Assembly: GCA_934276635.1 (NCBI GenBank)
Contig: CAKQTH010000002.1
Coordinates: 11,822 to 75,821, forward strand
DNA: 64,000 bases
Direction of reading: 5' to 3'
Source of the DNA: an uncultured Alphaproteobacteria bacterium
Lineage (GTDB): Bacteria; Pseudomonadota; Alphaproteobacteria; RF32; CAG-239
Made by a program: the position numbers and the translations under genes. The notes beneath the pieces were generated by a model. The model was not told the origin of the DNA. It worked only from the letters and a program-made list of their open reading frames with translations, and made no database searches. Below are positions 17,981 to 63,794 of this stretch, piece by piece. The number at the start of each line of letters is the position of its first letter. Positions within the stretch are counted from its first letter, which is position 1.

Positions 17981-18458
17981 CAAAACAGAGGCGAAAACCT
18001 CCGTCTTTTCTGCGGTGCATAAATCAGACAAACGACATCAGCATATATATAATAAAGAATCTGCCCCATTTATTCAGCCTTCCGAATTTTTTAATTTTTG
18101 CGGTCAGCGGCGTTAAGAAATAAGCAACAAAAAAAAAGCACTTTGGACACAAACAAATCTTCTCTGTAATCTCTTTCATTATCTATCCAGCCGATAATTG
18201 TTAATATCAATGGTGGTACAACCATTATCAACAAGAGAAACAGCATTGCTTCTTTTATAAAATATCCAGTTTTTTTTCAAATCCATTTTTTCTCCTTAAT
18301 ATTATCTTAGCCAAATAAGAATAAAAATCAATGAATCATTCTCCCTCAGCTCAAGGATTTTATTCATATTTTTCACTCAGAATCAGATGGTTTGGTAAAT
18401 TTTGTCGAAAAATCAATGTTTTGTCGAATAAAAATCTTAACGAAAGGTTAAAAAATCG

Positions 18459-18489
18459 TTGACAACACCTCACCGGGGGGGGGTAGAAT
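18459..18489 (+). promoter_or_regulatory. sigma-70-like promoter with a G9 homopolymer in the -35/-10 spacer (candidate phase-variable promoter)
   Basis: TTGACA (18459-18464), a 19-nt spacer that contains GGGGGGGGG (18475-18483), then TAGAAT (18484-18489). This lies 95 nt upstream of the autotransporter ATG. Confidence 0.55.
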
Positions 18490-18584: not shown

Positions 18585-21500
18585 ATGAAAAATTATGTTT
18601 TCAAGAGAATTCTGTTAACAACAAGCGTGGCTTGCGGCGCGCTTTTTGTCTCGGGGAATGTAAATGCGGCAACCGTGTCTACATGGGAAGAATTTAAGGC
18701 GGCGATTGCGGCCGGAGAAAGCGAGATTGTGCTTGCGGACAACCTGACGGCGACCGATATAATCACAATTACAAGTCCGCTCAGCATCAAGAGCGCGGAC
18801 GGACAGGTTTATAAAATTTCTGCGGCTGACGGGCTGAAATTTTCCGACTCCTTTATCAAATATACCGGCACATCGTCTTCTCCGCTGCTTAATTTGAGCA
18901 ATGTGCAGATTTCAAACATTTACCGTTTTAACAACACCAACGCCGGAACATACGCTGGCGGCGTAATCAACAACTCGGGCAAAATCGGCACGATTGACGG
19001 TGTGTTTTCTGACAACAAAATGGAATATAATCTAGACAGCGGTGGGCATACCAGAGTGTACGGCGGTATAATCTATAACAGTTCGTCCGGCTCCATAGAT
19101 AAAATCGGCGGCACATTTTCCAGCAACGACTTTGTCAGCCGCGTTCCGTGGAGCAGCCTCAACTCCTGGGGCGGCATAATCAGCAACCAGGGCACTATCA
19201 ACGAAATTGATGCAAACTTTATCGGAAACACTATGTCGACAGAAGATTATAGAGATAACTATACTTATGGCGGAATAATACAATCGAGCGGAAAAATCGG
19301 CACAATCAGAGGATTGTTCAAAGACAATATATTAAAATATTACAACTACACCAGCTACTGGAATGAGCAAAGGGGTAGTTTGATGTATATACAAAACGGG
19401 GTAGACAATATCTATGCCGACTTTATAAACAACTCCCTATATAATGAAGCCAATGACACTCTGACACGTGTCCACGCATCTTTAAACTTAGGTTTTATAA
19501 CCTTGCAATATAACAATATAAACGATTTTGTATCGTCTTTTGCTGAAAATAAGATGAATGTAACACTTACCGGAAACGGTAACGGATTTGTCAGAATAAA
19601 TGATATATACCAGACAACCGCAAAAAATATTGTGTTTGATATGCATAACAACAAAGTTGATGCAACAGCTGAAGGTTATATATATTATGAAAGCTTCAAC
19701 ATGGAAGGGGATTCAACTGATGTTACATTTAATAATTCCAAATTCTATGAAAATGAAACAACATTAGAATCCACCACAAAAAACATTTATGCCTCCGGCT
19801 TAATGACTGTATCCAGCAGCGGTGCGAAAGCAACATTTAACAATGTGCTGTTTAAGGACAATATTACTACCGCAGTCGGGAATTCGACCATCAGCGGCGG
19901 CGGTATCAAAAACAACGGTACATTAAACATTAACACCGCGCTTTTTGAAAACAACCTGATTAATTCCACAAATGCGGCAAACGGCGGAGCAATTTCCAAC
20001 GCAAAAACCGCCTCGATTATTGCTGATTTTGTCGGCAACAAAGCTTTCGCCGGAACGGATACTTCCACCGACACCAACGCCGTGGCCAGAGGTGGCGCGG
20101 TTTACAACTCCGCAGCCGGAACAATCGAAAAGCTCAGCGGCGTATTCTCTGACAACAAAGCGTATGCGATCGGCAAAACAAAATCTTCCGCTCTCGGCGG
20201 CGCGGTCTATAACAAAGGAAACCTCACTCTTTCTAATATCGTGATGGCCGACAACAACGCGGTTGCCGAAACCGGAACAGCCGACGAAACAAACAAGCCG
20301 GAAGCGCTCGGCGGTGCGGTTTATAACCTCGGAGATTTGCATATCAACGGTTCTGACGGCTTTGAAAACATTATCTCCGGCAACAAGGCGACTACCAAAA
20401 TCGGCGAGACCGAAAACACCGTGCAAAACGGAATATACACCGCCGCGGCCGACAAGAATGTATTTGTTAATATGACGACCGATTCAAAACTGTTCGTCTA
20501 TGACACCATCGACGGCGTTGAGGCCGGATACAACCTAAAATTTGACGGCGATGAAACCGGCCAGGCGTTTATTTATAACAATATTATCAACGCCAACATC
20601 TTTTTGGACAATATGTATCTGAACATTGCTCAAGAAGAATATCTCGACAATGCGAAAACTCTGACGCTTTCTTCCGGTCATTTGGATTTGATGAACGGAA
20701 AAGTCGGAACAATCCGCCCGGCAATGACTTTGACCGGCAATGTTCTGCTCTCCGTTGATGTCGATTTGTCCAACAAAATTATGGACCGCTTTGCCGATGG
20801 CGCAACCGCTACGGCCGGAAAACTCACAATCTCGCAGATAAATCTTCTTTCTGACGCTCTGCAAGATGTTGTGTATGTTCCGTTTGCCGAAGACAGCTGG
20901 CGCGACAAAGTTGATACCACCGTTACCGACGCCGTATATTCGAGCATCTATAAATATACGGTTTCGTACGAGGCTGACGGCGACGAAAACGGCGAAAATC
21001 GCGGCTCGTTCAAATTTGTCCGCACTTCGGTCATAAACCCGAATATTGAGGCGTCTTCAATCGCGGGAATCATCAACGGGGCAATGACGCAAGGCTTGAT
21101 TTATCAAAAAGCCCTGCAAGGCACCGATAACGCCGCACTCATCGGCCTCGGTATGTCTTCCGGCGATGAAAAGAGCGAATACGCTATCGGACAAATGTGG
21201 ATAAGACCGTTCTTGAGCAAAGAAAATGTTGATCTCAAATATTCCAACACCGTCCGTGCACAGGCTCGTGGTATGGTCTTTGGTATCGACAGCAACGACA
21301 TTCATCTTGACAACGGCGGAGAGCTCACAATCAGCCTCTATGGCGCAGTCGTCGACTCCGACCAAAAGTTTGAGCAAAACAAAGTTAAACAAACCGGAGG
21401 CAACCTCGGCGGATCTATCGTGGCAACATACGGCGACTTCTTTGCCGCAGTCACCGCCAATATCGGTATGAGCGATAATGAAGTCAACACCGTCACCGGC

Positions 21501-21974
21501 AAAGACAACTTTAATATCTATCTCGGCGGTGCGGCGTTCAAAACCGGCTACAATATCAGCCTTAACGAAAGCAAAGACCTGGTTATTCAGCCGAACTTCC
21601 TGACTTCGTACACCGCGCTGAAAACCGAAAATTATCACACTTCGGCCGGCGTTCATGTAAAGTCTGATATGCTGCATGTGGTAGAAATCGCTCCGGGCTT
21701 TAAGCTCATCAAAGAATACGACCACGGATTTAAGGCATATGCTACCATGACGGCGGTTTGGAATGTTATAATCGACGGCGAGGTTCGCGCAAACAATGTG
21801 GTTCTGCCTGACTTGAGCGTCAAACCATACATTGAATACGGATTCGGTTTTGAAAAAGACTGGAGCCAAGAAGAATGGAACCCGGTTGACCTCACAACAT
21901 TCGCGCAAATCGTCAGACGCGACGGCGGACGCGAAGGTTGGGCAGGAACCGCGGGTATCAAATGGAGCTTCTGA
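18585..21974 (+). CDS. autotransporter adhesin with Pmp-type (GGA[IV]xN / FxxN) passenger repeats and a C-terminal beta-barrel
   Basis: Signal peptide MKNYVFKRILLTTSVACGALFVSGNVNA. Repeated GGAIYN/GGAVYN...F.GN motifs. The C-terminus ends in GIKWSF (aromatic terminal residue). 1129 aa. Confidence 0.8.
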   Translation: MKNYVFKRILLTTSVACGALFVSGNVNAATVSTWEEFKAAIAAGESEIVLADNLTATDIITITSPLSIKSADGQVYKISAADGLKFSDSFIKYTGTSSSPLLNLSNVQISNIYRFNNTNAGTYAGGVINNSGKIGTIDGVFSDNKMEYNLDSGGHTRVYGGIIYNSSSGSIDKIGGTFSSNDFVSRVPWSSLNSWGGIISNQGTINEIDANFIGNTMSTEDYRDNYTYGGIIQSSGKIGTIRGLFKDNILKYYNYTSYWNEQRGSLMYIQNGVDNIYADFINNSLYNEANDTLTRVHASLNLGFITLQYNNINDFVSSFAENKMNVTLTGNGNGFVRINDIYQTTAKNIVFDMHNNKVDATAEGYIYYESFNMEGDSTDVTFNNSKFYENETTLESTTKNIYASGLMTVSSSGAKATFNNVLFKDNITTAVGNSTISGGGIKNNGTLNINTALFENNLINSTNAANGGAISNAKTASIIADFVGNKAFAGTDTSTDTNAVARGGAVYNSAAGTIEKLSGVFSDNKAYAIGKTKSSALGGAVYNKGNLTLSNIVMADNNAVAETGTADETNKPEALGGAVYNLGDLHINGSDGFENIISGNKATTKIGETENTVQNGIYTAAADKNVFVNMTTDSKLFVYDTIDGVEAGYNLKFDGDETGQAFIYNNIINANIFLDNMYLNIAQEEYLDNAKTLTLSSGHLDLMNGKVGTIRPAMTLTGNVLLSVDVDLSNKIMDRFADGATATAGKLTISQINLLSDALQDVVYVPFAEDSWRDKVDTTVTDAVYSSIYKYTVSYEADGDENGENRGSFKFVRTSVINPNIEASSIAGIINGAMTQGLIYQKALQGTDNAALIGLGMSSGDEKSEYAIGQMWIRPFLSKENVDLKYSNTVRAQARGMVFGIDSNDIHLDNGGELTISLYGAVVDSDQKFEQNKVKQTGGNLGGSIVATYGDFFAAVTANIGMSDNEVNTVTGKDNFNIYLGGAAFKTGYNISLNESKDLVIQPNFLTSYTALKTENYHTSAGVHVKSDMLHVVEIAPGFKLIKEYDHGFKAYATMTAVWNVIIDGEVRANNVVLPDLSVKPYIEYGFGFEKDWSQEEWNPVDLTTFAQIVRRDGGREGWAGTAGIKWSF

Positions 21975-33913: not shown

Positions 33914-34354
33914 ATGAAAATCACTATTATTGCAATCGGAAAATGCAAAAAAAATTCGCCGGAATACGCCTTGATTGAAGAATATAAAAAGCGCTCAAAT
34001 TGGGAAATTATCATCAAAGAAAAAGACAATTCAAACCAAAAAGACGAGGCGGAATTTTTGCAATCATCAATCCCGTCCGGCGCAAAAGTCGTGGTGCTTG
34101 ACGAACGCGGAGAAAACATAAAATCGCTTGATTTTGCCGCAAAACTCGAGGCGTGGGAAAATTCCGGCTGCCAAAATATCTGCTTTTTAATCGGCGGGGC
34201 GGACGGACATCTTGAATCCACCCGCAAACGCGCTGATTTGCTGCTTTCGTTCGGAAAAATGACCCTGCCGCATATGTTGATGCGTGCGGTTTTGAGCGAA
34301 CAAATTTATCGGGCGCAGACGATTATTCATCACCACCCGTACCACCGCGAATAA
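33914..34354 (+). CDS. rlmH: 23S rRNA (pseudouridine1915-N3)-methyltransferase RlmH
   Basis: 146 aa SPOUT-family protein (MKITIIAIGK...GGADGH). Confidence 0.8.
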   Translation: MKITIIAIGKCKKNSPEYALIEEYKKRSNWEIIIKEKDNSNQKDEAEFLQSSIPSGAKVVVLDERGENIKSLDFAAKLEAWENSGCQNICFLIGGADGHLESTRKRADLLLSFGKMTLPHMLMRAVLSEQIYRAQTIIHHHPYHRE

Positions 34355-34383
34355 GCAGATATCTTACCAAAATTTTCAAACAA

Positions 34384-34414
34384 AAACCACCGAGGGGAGT
34401 CGGTGGTTTTTTTG
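34384..34414 (+). terminator. rho-independent terminator after rlmH
   Basis: ACCACCG-aggggag-TCGGTGGT followed by a T7 run. Confidence 0.7.
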
Positions 34415-34448
34415 TGTTTTTCTCCGGTGAACGAAAAGAGAAAAACAG

Positions 34449-34944
34449 CTAGAAAGAAATGATAATGGTGTTATCTTTTTCTTCATGAACATCAGCGACG
34501 GCTTCTGCCAGGGCATAAAATGTTCGGTGTCCGGTCGGCATGGTTGTCATTCCGATGGTCGATGAGCCGGAGTCTGAAGTTGAGCCAGACCCGTTGCCGG
34601 TTGAAGAACCCGTACAGGAATTTGAACCTGTATCAGGTTTTGTCTCTTCCCCGCCGCTTGAACTCTGGTTGCCGTTGTTTGAATCAGAACCGCCGTTGTC
34701 AGGGGTCTTACCTAAAGTTGTTCCAGCTTTGCCAGTCCTCAGAAAAAGGATTGAATTTAGCATTTTTAAGAAAAGTTGATAAATCGAGTTCTACATTTTC
34801 TCCGGTATCTTCACCAAAATAAGAAACAGAGTTAATCTTATTGGAGTCTTACCAAGATGATGTCCCTATCAATATAGCCGCGTTCGCGTTGACGCAGATG
34901 GCAAGAGCGGTGGAAAGGGAGAGGAAAAAGGGTTTACTTTTCAT
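34449..34944 (-). pseudogene. fragmented small secreted/lipoprotein-like gene: a signal-peptide ORF (34849-34944), then a stop, an 85-nt gap and a +1-frame Gly/Ser-rich ORF (34449-34763)
   Basis: [22 protein letters not shown] is a signal peptide ending in a stop after 31 codons. The downstream 104-aa ORF is low-complexity G/S/T/N-rich and ends in ...IIISF. A G9 tract lies 39 nt upstream of the ATG. Confidence 0.3.
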
Positions 34945-34982
34945 AATACATATTCCTTTATAAAAATATTTAAAAACATCTA

Positions 34983-34991
34983 CCCCCCCCC
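34983..34991 (-). repeat. G9 homopolymer (C9 on the plus strand) followed by TAGA, upstream of the fragmented lipoprotein-like ORF
   Basis: Read directly from the sequence: the minus strand reads ...ctctcGGGGGGGGGtagatgttttt... Confidence 0.9.
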
Positions 34992-35164
34992 GAGAGTTTT
35001 CTCGGAGAGGGGTACATATTTTGCCGAACACATCACTGTTTCGACATTGCCTTATATTATGACTTTCTCGCAAAAGTCAACGATAAGCCACGCAAACCGC
35101 AGGTTTTTACAAAAAAGAGGCGGGTTTTCACCTGCCTCTGAAAACATATTTACGGATATGTCCT

Positions 35165-36523
35165 CTATAAGGGAATAGAAATGAGTACCCTCAAGCCTCC
35201 CATAGAACTATCGGAAAGCTCAATCTTTCCGCCGTGTGATGTAATAATGTCCTTAGCAATCGCAAGTCCGAGCCCGACGCCGCCGGTTTCTTTGTTGCGG
35301 GAGCCTTCAATGCGATAAAACGCCTTGAAAACATCTTCGCGTTTGTCTGCCGGAATTCCCGGCCCGTCATCTTCAATCGCAACCTCAAGTTTGTTATTGT
35401 TGCTCTCAAGCGATACGGCGATTGTTTTGCCATAATTAAACGCATTTGAAATGACATTCGTCAGCGCGCGTTTCAAAGCCTGTTCACGCCCCTGAATAGC
35501 GCTGACCTGATCGTTGGTCGAATATCTTATCATCGCCTTGGTGTTTCTGAACTTGTTGATAATGCTCAAAATCAGTTCGTTCATATCAACAAAGGTTGCC
35601 TTTTCGCCGCCTTCACCGCTGACAAACGACAGATACCCGTCAAGCATCTTTTCCATTTCGGAAATATCATTCAAAAACTCTTCTTTTTCTTCCATTTTCG
35701 GCATCATTGCAATCTGAAGTTTCATTCTGGTCAGCGGAGTGCGCAAATCGTGCGAAACACCGGCAAGCATCTGCGTTCTTTCACTGATTTGGCGCTGAAT
35801 ACGCTCTTTCATTTTGATAAACGCATATCCGGCGCGGCGAACCTCAATCGAGCCGTACGGCTTGAACTTTTTGTTGTCGATTCCTTTACCGAAATCCTCT
35901 GCGGCCTGAGCCAACTGAGCAATGGAACGAACCTGAATCCTCAGGAAAAGCGCAGCCACAATAAACAGCAGCAGCGATGTTCCAATCATCCATGCCACAA
36001 ACCCGAAAATCGAGGTGCTGAAGATGTTTTTCGGAGAAGTCAAAAACTCAAACAATCCGTCTTTTGTATCCAAATATACAAACAACTCCGTGCGGTCTTC
36101 ATTCAAATAAATCGTGCTGATTGCGTCCGGAAATTCTTTTTTGAGCGAATTTTCCAAAAATCCGGTAACCATCTTGCTGTTTTTGTTTTGGCGGTTCAAA
36201 ACCGAATGACGCGCATCGTTGTCATAAAATTTTACCTGCATATCATACAGTTTATCCGACAATTTTGCAATTTTATCAAAATTTTCGGGACTGTTTTCGG
36301 CCAGTTCAACCACAAATGCCATATTGGAAGTTAGGTTGTTCGAAAGCTTTCTGCCGACTTTGCCCCAGCTGCCGTCAAAAAATGCGACAATGGACACAAT
36401 TTGAACCACAATCAGCGGAATAAATATCAAAAGCATTGTTCTGAAAAACAATGTTTTCGGCATAAATTTCAATTTGAGATATCTCAAAGCATTTTCTGCT
36501 TTTTCGGGCATTTTAAAATGCAT
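35165..36523 (-). CDS. sensor histidine kinase (EnvZ-like; HAMP plus HisKA plus HATPase)
   Basis: Two TMs, an H-box (SHDLRTPLTRM) and G-boxes (DDGPGIP, GGVGLGLAI). Lies downstream of an OmpR-family regulator. Confidence 0.85.
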   Translation of the reverse strand: MHFKMPEKAENALRYLKLKFMPKTLFFRTMLLIFIPLIVVQIVSIVAFFDGSWGKVGRKLSNNLTSNMAFVVELAENSPENFDKIAKLSDKLYDMQVKFYDNDARHSVLNRQNKNSKMVTGFLENSLKKEFPDAISTIYLNEDRTELFVYLDTKDGLFEFLTSPKNIFSTSIFGFVAWMIGTSLLLFIVAALFLRIQVRSIAQLAQAAEDFGKGIDNKKFKPYGSIEVRRAGYAFIKMKERIQRQISERTQMLAGVSHDLRTPLTRMKLQIAMMPKMEEKEEFLNDISEMEKMLDGYLSFVSGEGGEKATFVDMNELILSIINKFRNTKAMIRYSTNDQVSAIQGREQALKRALTNVISNAFNYGKTIAVSLESNNNKLEVAIEDDGPGIPADKREDVFKAFYRIEGSRNKETGGVGLGLAIAKDIITSHGGKIELSDSSMGGLRVLISIPL

Positions 36524-37246: not shown

Positions 37247-37972
37247 CTATTTTGCAGATGCTTTCTTAGTTGTTGATTTTTTTGCCGCAGGCTTCTTTGC
37301 AGCCTTTTTAGCGGAAGCGCTCTTTTTTGCCGGAGTTTTCTTTGCTGCCGCTTTTGCAGTTTTCTTTACGGTCTTTTTTGCAACAGCTTCGGCTGTTGTT
37401 TTTTTCTCGGCCTTTTTCTTTTTTTCCAGACTCTTAATATATTCAAGGCTCTTTTCAAAATATTGATATCCGGTAATAAATGTCAGCACGCCGGCAACCC
37501 AAAGCAAAATCTCTCCGACCCCGCCCCAATACCAAAATCCGCGGAGCAGCATCATTGCCAAAGCCGTCATCTGAAATCCGGTCTTCCACTTTGCAAGGCG
37601 GGTAACCGGCATTCCGACATTAACCTCGCGCAAAAATTCGCGCAGTCCGGAAACCAATATCTCGCGGCAAAGAATTACAAACACCGGAACATAGCTGAGT
37701 TTGCATGTAATCATATCCGGCTTAATCAAAATAACCACCAAAGCGGAGGCCACCAAAAGTTTGTCGGCAATCGGGTCAAGCAAGCGTCCGAAAGCGGAAG
37801 TTTGATTATACAAACGGGCAAGATACCCGTCAAAATAATCGGTTATGGAAGCGGCAATAAAAAGAATTGCGGCAAAATAGCCGTACCACGGCCAGCTGCA
37901 ATACACCGACAAGAAAATAAGCGGAATTACGGCAATTCTTGAAATTGTCAATATATTAGGAAGATTATACAC
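37247..37972 (-). CDS. pgsA: CDP-alcohol phosphatidyltransferase (PgsA-like) with a roughly 55-aa Lys/Ala-rich histone H1-like C-terminal tail
   Basis: DGYLAR...G...D..AD motif. The uvrC-pgsA adjacency is conserved. The tail reads KKKKAEKKTTAEAVAKKTVKKTAKAAAKKTPAKKSASAKKAAKKPAAKK. Confidence 0.75.
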   Translation of the reverse strand: MYNLPNILTISRIAVIPLIFLSVYCSWPWYGYFAAILFIAASITDYFDGYLARLYNQTSAFGRLLDPIADKLLVASALVVILIKPDMITCKLSYVPVFVILCREILVSGLREFLREVNVGMPVTRLAKWKTGFQMTALAMMLLRGFWYWGGVGEILLWVAGVLTFITGYQYFEKSLEYIKSLEKKKKAEKKTTAEAVAKKTVKKTAKAAAKKTPAKKSASAKKAAKKPAAKKSTTKKASAK

Positions 37973-61733: not shown

Positions 61734-63794
61734 TTAAAATGATTGTCCAAATGTTTTCTTCCCTTTACGATATCTTTGCAGGCCATTCTTCATAAAGTAT
61801 ATCGACCTGATTTTGCATGTTGTTCCGCTGCTATTTTCGTTTACATCAGAAACTTGCCATTTTCCGTTATAGTAATACAGTTTATATCTTGTGTATTCAT
61901 CACCTTTGTTTGTTCCAACGCCCCAATAACAGTTAGTCGTCGTAAACTGGTCTCCTCCGGCTTTCTTCAGTGCTTCATTAATTGACGTAATATTTTCCGC
62001 AATTTTTTCCAGCATCTCTTTGGTCGGCAGAGCATGTAATGCAGTCGCGTTACAATCAGCTATCCTTTGGACAATTGAACATGCCGAATTGTTAATCTTT
62101 GCCTTATAACAGTTCCTATCATAATCTGTTTCTCCGGCACCATTTATATAATTTCCCTTGTTGCCGTTGCATTCCGGATCGTCTTTCAGCGACACCGCGT
62201 GGTCATAATAGCCGAAGCTTCCGCCATTTGTATAAGGACCGTTCAGCTTGACCCCGGCCATATTACCTCCCAAATCAACCTTGGATTGATTTGACGGCCA
62301 ATAGAAAATGAGGCCATTGTCATCAGTATGCGGGGAGTTCGTGCTGGTTCCATACATATAGTACCAAGTAGAAGATGAACCTTTACCCTTTTTTATACAC
62401 CTTACATATCCATAATCACCAGCTGTCTCAATATACCATAGGCCTCTGCTTGTGGTAATCTCCTTTACTCCTCCAATATTTGCTTCATGATAACTGCTAT
62501 TTATTTCTTTGCACTTTTTCGGACGATAGCAAACTGCTCCGTTTTTGTTTTCATCAACACAAATTGCGGCTTTGTGGTTGGGATTTCCGTCATATGAAGA
62601 ATTCTTACAATCGCCTTCCGCCACATAATATTCAGTCGGACAAGTTGCTTTCTCTTTATAACAAGTTTTTGAGGTATCGTTGGTGGCGGTTGTTGTGTCA
62701 CAGGTTTTTCCGCTCGGGCACGAACCAAGTATATATCCGGTCGGACATACCGCTTTTTCCTTCTTATAACAGGTTAATGTTCCCGTATCTTCCGTAACTT
62801 TTACACATACATTTTCCGCATCTCCGCAACTGCTGCTGAAAGTATAATTTGCATTATATCCGCTACATGTCTTAGAACATTTTACACTATATGTTGTATT
62901 TGTATCCGTTTCACAAAGCTTCGGCCTGCCTTTTATATTAAAACATGTATCTTTCGTCCAGCCGTTCAGACATTTATAATCATCATACAAATCTCCGCAC
63001 TGGTTGCCGTCAACCGCAAAATTTCCGGTAAGATTATTCGAAGCATATTTATATCTGGCCGGGCATTTACATGTTCTGCAGGTTAGCTCTTTTTGCTGTG
63101 AATGCGTATATGCTTTATCTTCAAGCAATGGTGCTTTACATTCACCTGCCTGATAACTGTTGCCGGTGTCACAGGTTACTGTTGTATACAGTGTTTCTCC
63201 CGCATTATCGCCGTATTTATATGTGCATGCTCCGGTATAAGTAAATCCCGGTGTTTCCTTTTTGTATTTATATGTGCTGTCGCAATCACAATCTTTATAC
63301 AAAACCTTATTTGCATTATTTGCATTTGCCCCATACAGCATCGTGCAGATTCCGCCGTCTGCAACCGGAGTTTGGCCAGCACTGCATACACTTGAATTTG
63401 TCTCTCCGTCTTCTCGTGTTATTTTGGATAAAGTATATTTATAATCACTTTTGCAAGTTGCGCGGTAGAGCTTTTTGCCGTCTATTTTTGTGCATTCTTC
63501 AATATCATACGCTGCCTCGTTTGTCGGTCTTTCTGTCAGCATATAATAGTTCGGATTACAGGTACATTTTACAAATTTCTCACCTTTTGAGACGCAGGTA
63601 TCGTATACGATTTCTTTAACTCCATCGCACGATTTTTCTTTGTATCCCAAACTATTGCAATCTTTTGTTTCGATGCTCGGTTTGTCGCACCCGCCGACGA
63701 TAAAACATACATCAGCGTTACTCGGCTCTACCCCCCCCCACCATGAGGCTACGAAAAGGGTTAGAAACCACACCGTCAGATTTGATTTTCTCAT
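61734..63794 (-). CDS. large secreted Cys/Tyr-rich protein (686 aa) with an in-frame G9 tract in its signal peptide; the C-terminal region resembles DUF1566 (Lcl C-terminal-like)
   Basis: Signal peptide MRKSNLTVWFLTLFVASWWGGVEPSNA|D with an AAAGGGAG ribosome-binding site. At least 50 Cys, many in CxC, CDCD or CKC motifs. The C-terminal LHALPTKEML...YWGVG...YYNGKWQV...CKIRSI is reminiscent of DUF1566. Confidence 0.65.
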   Translation of the reverse strand: MRKSNLTVWFLTLFVASWWGGVEPSNADVCFIVGGCDKPSIETKDCNSLGYKEKSCDGVKEIVYDTCVSKGEKFVKCTCNPNYYMLTERPTNEAAYDIEECTKIDGKKLYRATCKSDYKYTLSKITREDGETNSSVCSAGQTPVADGGICTMLYGANANNANKVLYKDCDCDSTYKYKKETPGFTYTGACTYKYGDNAGETLYTTVTCDTGNSYQAGECKAPLLEDKAYTHSQQKELTCRTCKCPARYKYASNNLTGNFAVDGNQCGDLYDDYKCLNGWTKDTCFNIKGRPKLCETDTNTTYSVKCSKTCSGYNANYTFSSSCGDAENVCVKVTEDTGTLTCYKKEKAVCPTGYILGSCPSGKTCDTTTATNDTSKTCYKEKATCPTEYYVAEGDCKNSSYDGNPNHKAAICVDENKNGAVCYRPKKCKEINSSYHEANIGGVKEITTSRGLWYIETAGDYGYVRCIKKGKGSSSTWYYMYGTSTNSPHTDDNGLIFYWPSNQSKVDLGGNMAGVKLNGPYTNGGSFGYYDHAVSLKDDPECNGNKGNYINGAGETDYDRNCYKAKINNSACSIVQRIADCNATALHALPTKEMLEKIAENITSINEALKKAGGDQFTTTNCYWGVGTNKGDEYTRYKLYYYNGKWQVSDVNENSSGTTCKIRSIYFMKNGLQRYRKGKKTFGQSF
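63731..63739 (-). repeat. G9 homopolymer (C9 on the plus strand) inside codons 18-21 of the Cys-rich protein's signal peptide, followed by TAGA
   Basis: The coding strand reads TGG TGG GGG GGG GTA GAG (W W G G V E). Confidence 0.9.

Follow-up and report, generated by a model that had tools for sequence, protein, structure and literature searches.

Intragenic poly-G contingency genes occur in Campylobacter, Helicobacter, and Neisseria. An SSR survey has been carried out for Neisseria meningitidis (PMC5084427). Poly-G/poly-C tracts also belong to the phase-variable promoters of outer membrane protein genes, as described for tpr and tp0126 of Treponema pallidum and for porA and opc of N. meningitidis, and a tract of nine Gs (G9) is the commonest length at tprL (PMC7864442). 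In the mRNA leader of Helicobacter pylori tlpB, a variable G-repeat is targeted in trans by the C/U-rich small RNA RepG (PMC8295292).

We examined a G9 run and the reading frames that follow it in a 64-kb stretch of DNA (the window, by which we mean the whole stretch analysed; G+C content, 43%) and set the locus against these systems. As in T. pallidum and N. meningitidis, 8 to 10 Gs lie a short distance upstream of genes for exported proteins, the length varies, and G9 is the commonest. Unlike the tracts of porA and tp0126, the run studied here is downstream of a consensus promoter, within the predicted transcript, where it would form one arm of a hairpin, and the gene behind it is apparently dead. 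It also differs from the intragenic contingency genes in lying outside the open reading frame (ORF), whose frame it cannot alter, and in its host, an uncultured gut alphaproteobacterium. The likeness to tlpB and RepG is that a leader G-repeat of variable length is predicted to pair with a C/U-rich RNA segment; in contrast to that system, the partner, CCCCUCUCC, is a cis element of the same leader, 14 nt upstream. With its nonsense codon, internal deletion, promoter damage, separately decaying sister copy, and intact paralogues, the locus resembles ordinary pseudogenes of paralogous families of surface or secreted proteins. The best explanation of the whole, to which we give a probability of about 85%, is a fixed pseudogene of a secreted-protein cassette that carries a conserved G9 leader hairpin. 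Such a pseudogene is undescribed but conceptually ordinary.

On the minus strand, the feature is flanked on one side by rlmH (33914 to 34354, plus strand, ending in TAA), which converges on it, and on the other by an EnvZ-like histidine kinase gene (35165 to 36523, minus strand). The elements named in the original prediction are all present on the minus strand. The G9 run (34991 to 34983) is followed by TAGATG, and 38 nt separate its last G from the ATG (34944 to 34942) of a signal-peptide ORF of 31 codons (34944 to 34849; TAA at 34851 to 34849). A Sec signal peptide at the start of this ORF was judged plausible by inspection, and a ribosome-binding site, AAGGA (34958 to 34954), precedes it inside the A/U-rich stretch of the predicted leader. 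A Gly/Ser-rich ORF of 104 codons (34763 to 34449, ending in ...TIIISF) begins in a different frame 85 nt past the TAA. The first reading had missed that the G run is one arm of a strong predicted hairpin and that the signal-peptide frame stays open for 46 further codons past this TAA, encoding DSNKINSVSYFGEDTGENVELDLSTFLKNAKFNPFSEDWQSWNNFR before it stops. This stretch, codons 33 to 78 (34708 to 34848, minus strand, with the second stop, a TAA, at 34710 to 34708), continues a conserved N-terminal region. The C-terminal fragment, in the shifted frame, occupies 34449 to 34715 on the same strand and comprises a Gly/Ser linker and the conserved last 33 residues, with a TAG at 34451 to 34449. A longer ORF starting at TTG 35073 and running through the G run in the frame of MKSK was considered and rejected; it buries the signal peptide and has no ribosome-binding site.

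Searches with the frame-corrected translation as the query found five proteins, and a profile search found one further intact member. The intact homologues are single-frame proteins of 244 to 337 aa encoded in metagenome-assembled genomes (MAGs) of closely related gut Alphaproteobacteria, and both window fragments match intact P0001 and P0003 to P0006 in collinear order. P0001 (244 aa) is the syntenic intact orthologue, encoded in contig L091 at the same position between the histidine kinase gene and rlmH. In tblastn alignments, its residues 1 to 77 fall on 34944 to 34714 with 84% identity, running across the first stop, and its residues 184 to 239 on 34715 to 34467. Residues 5 to 92 of P0002 fall on 34715 to 34452 (95%), residues 200 to 278 of P0003 match the C-terminal fragment (82%), and the C-terminal parts of P0001 to P0005 were all placed on 34715 to 34452. 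The intact proteins are ordered as signal peptide, conserved N-terminal stretch, variable central domain of about 110 to 190 aa, Gly/Ser linker, and C-terminus, the last 33 residues of which are invariant (TTTMPTGHRTFYAPAEAAADVHEGKDNTVIISF, ending in IISF). On these alignments, the two ORFs are the collinear ends of one gene. The suggestion that the region holds a broken, decaying gene is thus borne out, one gene having been left in two pieces relative to intact single-frame proteins, and the orthologues encode one protein in a single frame rather than two conserved small genes.

Four lesions in the window copy are indicated by comparison with the intact members. The first is a GAA-to-TAA change at codon 32, where the ...ASSWEDSNKINS of intact P0001 corresponds to ...TSSW*DSNKINS in the window, the change turning SSWEDSNK into SSW*DSNK (the asterisk marks the stop). 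TAA is a normal stop in this genome, as rlmH ends in it. The motif GGTAAGA recurs at both stops of the N-terminal frame; we set this aside as a coincidence of the GAA-to-TAA change and normal L-G-K-T codons. The second lesion is the out-of-frame loss of the central domain, with the junction at 34714 to 34733 (minus strand). This deletion, of about 0.3 kb, removed about 106 codons relative to P0001 and about 132 relative to P0003 (overall, about 105 to 130), and residues 78 to 183 of P0001 and 68 to 199 of P0003 have no counterpart in the window. Because the central domain was lost out of frame, the gene now appears as two frames. The third is an extra 12-nt deletion of TTTGGACGAATA, flanked by TTT, between 34717 and 34716. 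A strain represented by contig L111 has the same stop and large deletion but retains these 12 nt; the large deletion is ancestral, and the 12-nt deletion came later.

The fourth lesion affects the promoter. Intact promoters of the form TTGACT-N17-TATAAT are present in L091, L093, L094 to L096, and L010. In the window copy (damaged promoter, 35051 to 35080, minus strand), a -35 hexamer TTGACT (35080 to 35075) and a residual ATAATATAAG (35060 to 35051) remain, and 4 nt have been lost from the spacer between 35061 and 35060, so that the window reads TTGACTTTTGCGAGAAAGTC^ATAATATAAGG. The same-species contigs L001, L002, and L009 share this 4-nt deletion. The promoter was assigned by consensus match, together with the point at which paralogue homology begins. 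A sigma-70 scan of the window copy gave no match because the promoter is damaged, and the promoter became visible only once intact copies were aligned. The residual TATAAG, 18 nt from the -35 hexamer, might permit weak transcription.

The window sequence is 100% identical over 1.4 kb in three contigs from independent samples, and four more contigs with about 99% identity, from different samples and assemblers, share the stop and the large deletion. These two lesions are thus found in every covering contig (L001 to L004, L009, L010, and L111, from independent metagenomes), and in L003 and L004 identity with the window is 100% as far as 35300. Gene callers placed no gene between rlmH and the kinase gene in L001 to L004. 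Since the stop and the large deletion recur in all covering contigs, the pseudogene is best regarded as fixed. The comparisons show the region to be, as far as sequence can tell, a fixed pseudogene of the secreted-protein cassette family, with the G run in none of the four lesions. For annotation, neither ORF should be called as a gene, and the frame break should not be recorded as a slippage switch.

The G run itself belongs to the leader. The predicted 5' leader (34945 to 35045, minus strand) consists of a small stem-loop, a large hairpin, and the A/U-rich stretch with AAGGA, and it is nearly identical across all family copies. The 106-nt leader folds at -45.8 kcal/mol, compared to -20.6 ± 3 kcal/mol in shuffled sequences (z = -8.4). 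The large hairpin (34981 to 35014, minus strand) is an intrinsic-terminator-like 15-bp structure, TACCCCTCTCCGAGAAAACTCTCGGGGGGGGGTA followed by GATGTTTTT, in which the G9 run supplies the 3' arm; a terminator scan gave 15 pairs, 9 of them G-C, with a 4-nt loop and then GATGTTTTTA. The stem arms are TACCCCTCTCCGAGA-AAAC-TCTCGGGGGGGGGTA, with an A-rich stretch on one side and a U-rich stretch on the other. The G run pairs with its C/U-rich 5' arm through two G-U pairs among the others, so that the stem forms on the sense strand only, pointing to a role at the RNA level. The U-run is set off from the core stem by GAUG, which makes the terminator efficiency uncertain. An Rfam scan of 34300 to 35300 gave nothing above the gathering score, the best candidates being terminator-like leaders at the rlmH terminator, and pattern scans for the leader in JGI metagenome contigs gave no matches.

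In a fold series from G5 to G12, G9 was the optimum, giving a perfect stem at -34.6 kcal/mol, with G8 and G10 at about -30.5 kcal/mol. Natural variants keep the stem: the C-to-T change in the 5' arm of L115 to L119 still pairs with G, and L095 has changes in the loop only. The copies are too similar for covariation to support the hairpin, offering one G-C to G-U change besides the loop changes. The 64-kb window has three copies of the 12-mer GGGGGGGGGTAG, and 100 dinucleotide-preserving shuffles produced none, indicating that the G run is beyond chance. Across the family, these alignments show the G9 run as the 3' arm of a predicted 15-bp hairpin conserved before every copy. In intact copies, a consensus promoter lies about 60 nt upstream, and the hairpin, placed in the RNA leader after the promoter and before the ribosome-binding site, would serve either as a terminator-like attenuator or as an element that affects stability. 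G9 would predominate because that length completes the stem, and slippage to G8 or G10, at a cost of about 4 kcal/mol, would at most tune expression and would not act as a switch. A regulatory role of this kind is plausible; the hairpin of the window copy would be a fossil.

The most serious alternative is that the leader G run is a working contingency tract, in which slippage among G8, G9, and G10 alters read-through of the hairpin or re-phases a 25-codon upstream ORF, giving heritable expression states, with the window copy as a decayed member of a phase-variable family. We regard this as possible but doubtful. Nine Gs exceed the length at which slippage occurs (about 7 or more G/C), and all three lengths were seen before family copies: over 19 family contigs, the tract was G9 in 17, G8 in one (L093), and G10 in one (L117). 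L117 differs in this respect from four contigs of the same locus with G9 (L115, L116, L118, and L119). G8 would fuse the upstream ORF to the main ORF, and G10 would stop it at the TAG. Poly-G tracts elsewhere in the lineage occupy classical switch positions (a promoter spacer, signal-peptide codons, and an acetyltransferase gene), and the lineage is enriched in runs of G9 or longer relative to other species of the group. However, the predominance of G9 extends to 6/6 contigs at the locus of the pseudogene, whose expression should not be under selection, and the hairpin remains very stable at G8 and G10, so that no on/off effect is predicted. Substitutions in the upstream ORF are all nonsynonymous, with no sign of a conserved peptide. 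The lengths themselves come from consensus assemblies, which are blind to heterogeneity within a population, and some of the differences may be technical.

The G tract is outside the ORF and outside any recognisable promoter spacer. We rejected, for this locus, a promoter whose spacer would contain the G run, because no -35-like hexamer is present 16 to 19 nt upstream of TAGATG. The original prediction had offered either a decaying contingency gene or a gene whose expression and frame depend on tract length or slippage. Of this, the decaying gene stands, and the dependence of frame on the tract falls away: the run is upstream of the start, the break is the ancestral deletion of about 0.3 kb, and an ordinary nonsense codon and a damaged promoter also disable the copy. 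The contingency idea fits the organism, but support for it at this tract is weaker, and no means of switching is apparent.

The upstream ORF, MSKQQCVRQNMCPSPRKLSGGGRCF followed by a stop, is found at 35047 to 34970 (minus strand) of the window and in the leaders of L091, L093, and L117. Its ATG is 7 to 8 nt after TATAAT, and it may be leaderless. With G8 (L093), it is fused in frame to the main ORF; with G10 (L117), it stops at the TAG, and in the window copy, it stops at codon 5. The peptide does not look conserved among copies. In L002, AGAG stands in place of the T after the G run.

Other poly-G tracts of the lineage appear to be more convincing switches than the one at 34983 to 34991. The density of runs of G9 or longer is about 3 per 64 kb here, versus 2 in about 750 kb of the group's other species. 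The G9 tract at 18475 to 18483 (plus strand) lies, like those of porA and tp0126, between two promoter hexamers, here a perfect -35 (TTGACA) and TAGAAT with a 19-nt spacer, about 100 nt before a gene for a secreted protein of 1,129 aa (18585 to 21974, plus strand). Besides its signal peptide, the protein contains GGA[VI]xN-type repeats and has ...KWSF at its C-terminus, and by inspection, it was judged to be autotransporter-like. In contig L098, the tract is G10 (20-nt spacer) and the DNA is otherwise identical; L100 ends 6 nt before the tract. The tract looks like a classical promoter-spacer phase switch, and both states seen are predicted to be weak or off.

Two further tracts are intragenic, and in this, the lineage is like the known contingency systems, with G8 to G10 tracts within a secreted-protein gene and an acetyltransferase gene. 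The former is a G9 run at 63739 to 63731 (minus strand), within the signal-peptide codons (..SWWGGVEPSNA) of a Cys-rich secreted protein of 686 aa (61734 to 63794, minus strand). G8 would lead to an immediate TAG and G10 to a stop four codons later; the tract is G9 (ON) in both other covering contigs. Neither the 1,129-aa nor the 686-aa protein had a Pfam match. Many assemblies break just past the 686-aa gene, and L103 and L108 have different neighbours upstream of it. The second intragenic tract is in a hexapeptide-repeat acetyltransferase gene that adjoins a family copy (positions 2323 to 2331 of L094 and 2324 to 2331 of L096, and in L115 to L119, with 2329 to 2337 in L117). The gene is intact (196 aa) with ctgct-G9 or ctgcta-G8 and split (37/44 + 82 aa, or 117 aa) with ctgct-G8 or ctgcta-G9, and ON and OFF alleles were found in different samples.

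Every independent G8 to G10 tract of the lineage is followed by TAG, in the contexts TAGAAT, TAGATG, TAGAGC, and TAGCTA (18475 to 18486, 34980 to 34991, and 63728 to 63739 of the window, and about 2323 to 2340 of L094, L096, and L115 to L119). In the two coding tracts, a shift into one of the other frames runs directly into this TAG. Other species have two tracts of G9 or longer, and TAG follows neither. An A9 run at 18129 to 18137 is A8 in 3 of 6 otherwise identical contigs, indicating that assemblies here often disagree in homopolymer length, in part perhaps for technical reasons.

This human-gut alphaproteobacterial lineage thus appears to use poly-G tracts at genes for exported proteins and at a putative acetyltransferase gene. 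If confirmed at the read level, this would extend homopolymer phase variation to a little-studied commensal group and provide concrete loci for strain-level surface variation in metagenomes. A more speculative and rather unlikely extension is that the lineage runs a poly-G contingency system of its own, with G8 to G10 followed by TAG in promoter spacers, signal-peptide codons, and an enzyme gene, a cassette with a self-contained, slippage-tunable attenuator whose G-repeat and C/U-rich arm pair in cis, as a cis counterpart of RepG/tlpB, and dead copies shuffled between loci by recombination.

The alignments show the family to be a lineage-restricted, multicopy cassette, which by prediction comprises a consensus promoter, a leader of about 105 nt, the ORF, and a terminator, and whose product is a small predicted secreted protein of an orphan family. 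A profile search of 1.84 billion representative proteins gave only five clusters, all from this lineage, and no distant family, and P0006 had no match in Pfam. Copies, intact or broken, are present at three loci: between the kinase gene and rlmH (P0001 in L091 and the window pseudogene), in the BOF/LpxI region (P0003 and P0006), and between the Hexapep and MlaC genes (P0004, P0005, and P0007). Homology among the aligned paralogues sets in about 10 nt before the -35 hexamer and, at two of the three loci, ends after the terminator hairpin, about 70 nt past the stop. A terminator scan placed this 3' hairpin at 34382 to 34411 of the window, where it also serves as the terminator of the convergent rlmH, which ends just before it. 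The same hairpin is found behind the family gene at the unrelated MlaC locus (L094, L096, L115, and L117) and is absent after the family gene at the BOF locus. The ends of the cassette are nearly identical between copies, and the core is about 55 to 68% identical at the protein level. The family can be described as mobile-looking, an orphan multicopy cassette for secreted proteins whose ends are homogenised and whose core varies.

A sister copy of the short allele is present at the Hexapep/MlaC locus in L115 to L119. It has the same deletion junction and promoter deletion as the window copy, extra frameshifts of its own, and no TAA at codon 32, suggesting that the short allele arose long ago, has passed from one locus or lineage to another, and is undergoing independent decay.

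These features also bear on whether the dead copy is a silent donor for gene conversion with expressed paralogues, as in silent-cassette antigenic variation, which we consider improbable. Near-identical 5' ends (promoter, leader, and signal peptide) and 3' ends (last 33 codons and terminator) around a variable core would suit such exchange. The window copy combines an N-terminal part that most resembles P0001 with a linker nearest to those of P0002 and P0003, which makes it a mosaic, and the short allele with its promoter deletion recurs at the second locus in L115 to L119. In L010, the body of the pseudogene is attached to the sequence context found upstream of the paralogue at the BOF locus. 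However, the part that would be worth donating, the variable central domain, is missing from this copy, in which further lesions are accumulating. The L010 junction lies within a repeat of more than 150 nt, where an assembly chimera is possible, and no recombinant expressed gene with window-specific sequence was found.

Against the fixed pseudogene, the remaining alternatives carry little weight. An assembly or sequencing artefact in the window is very improbable; three assemblies do break 57 nt after rlmH (L005 to L007), indicating a region that is hard to assemble, but the identity over 1.4 kb in three independent contigs and the stop and large deletion in four more argue against it. Programmed recoding, by which stop read-through and ribosomal frameshifting would yield a full protein from the N-terminal frame that is open for 46 codons past the first stop, is hardly credible: the homologues are single-frame and have their roughly 105 to 130 extra codons exactly at the frame junction, this junction is a deletion scar with no slippery site, TAA is an ordinary stop in neighbouring rlmH, and the related short allele in L115 to L119 breaks its frame elsewhere. 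Nor is there any real prospect that the region holds two unrelated small genes, for a 31-aa secreted peptide and a 104-aa Gly/Ser-rich protein, as the original prediction had allowed; both ORFs start with ATG, but both match one protein collinearly in five intact homologues, the first 16 codons of the 104-aa ORF are N-terminal-domain sequence read out of frame, no Shine-Dalgarno sequence precedes that ORF, and neither was called in L001 to L004.

The exact RlmH protein was found on gut-metagenome contigs from the Hadza and other cohorts, and its nearest relatives among species-representative genomes (73 to 80% identity) almost all carry the label of uncultured gut or rumen Alphaproteobacteria MAGs. 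Contigs with the exact RlmH differ in their neighbours. L010 (1415 to 2527) has a BOF gene upstream of the pseudogene, and L009 (1 to 2487) has a tRNA-U5 methyltransferase gene in place of uvrB. These changes and the ends of L005 to L007 are either real cassette rearrangements or chimeras formed across the repeat, which exceeds 150 nt. A CDP-alcohol phosphatidyltransferase (PgsA-like; 37247 to 37972, minus strand) has a Lys/Ala-rich, histone-H1-like C-terminal tail, and its length varies by strain, being 241, 246, and 255 aa in L001, L002, and L091, respectively.
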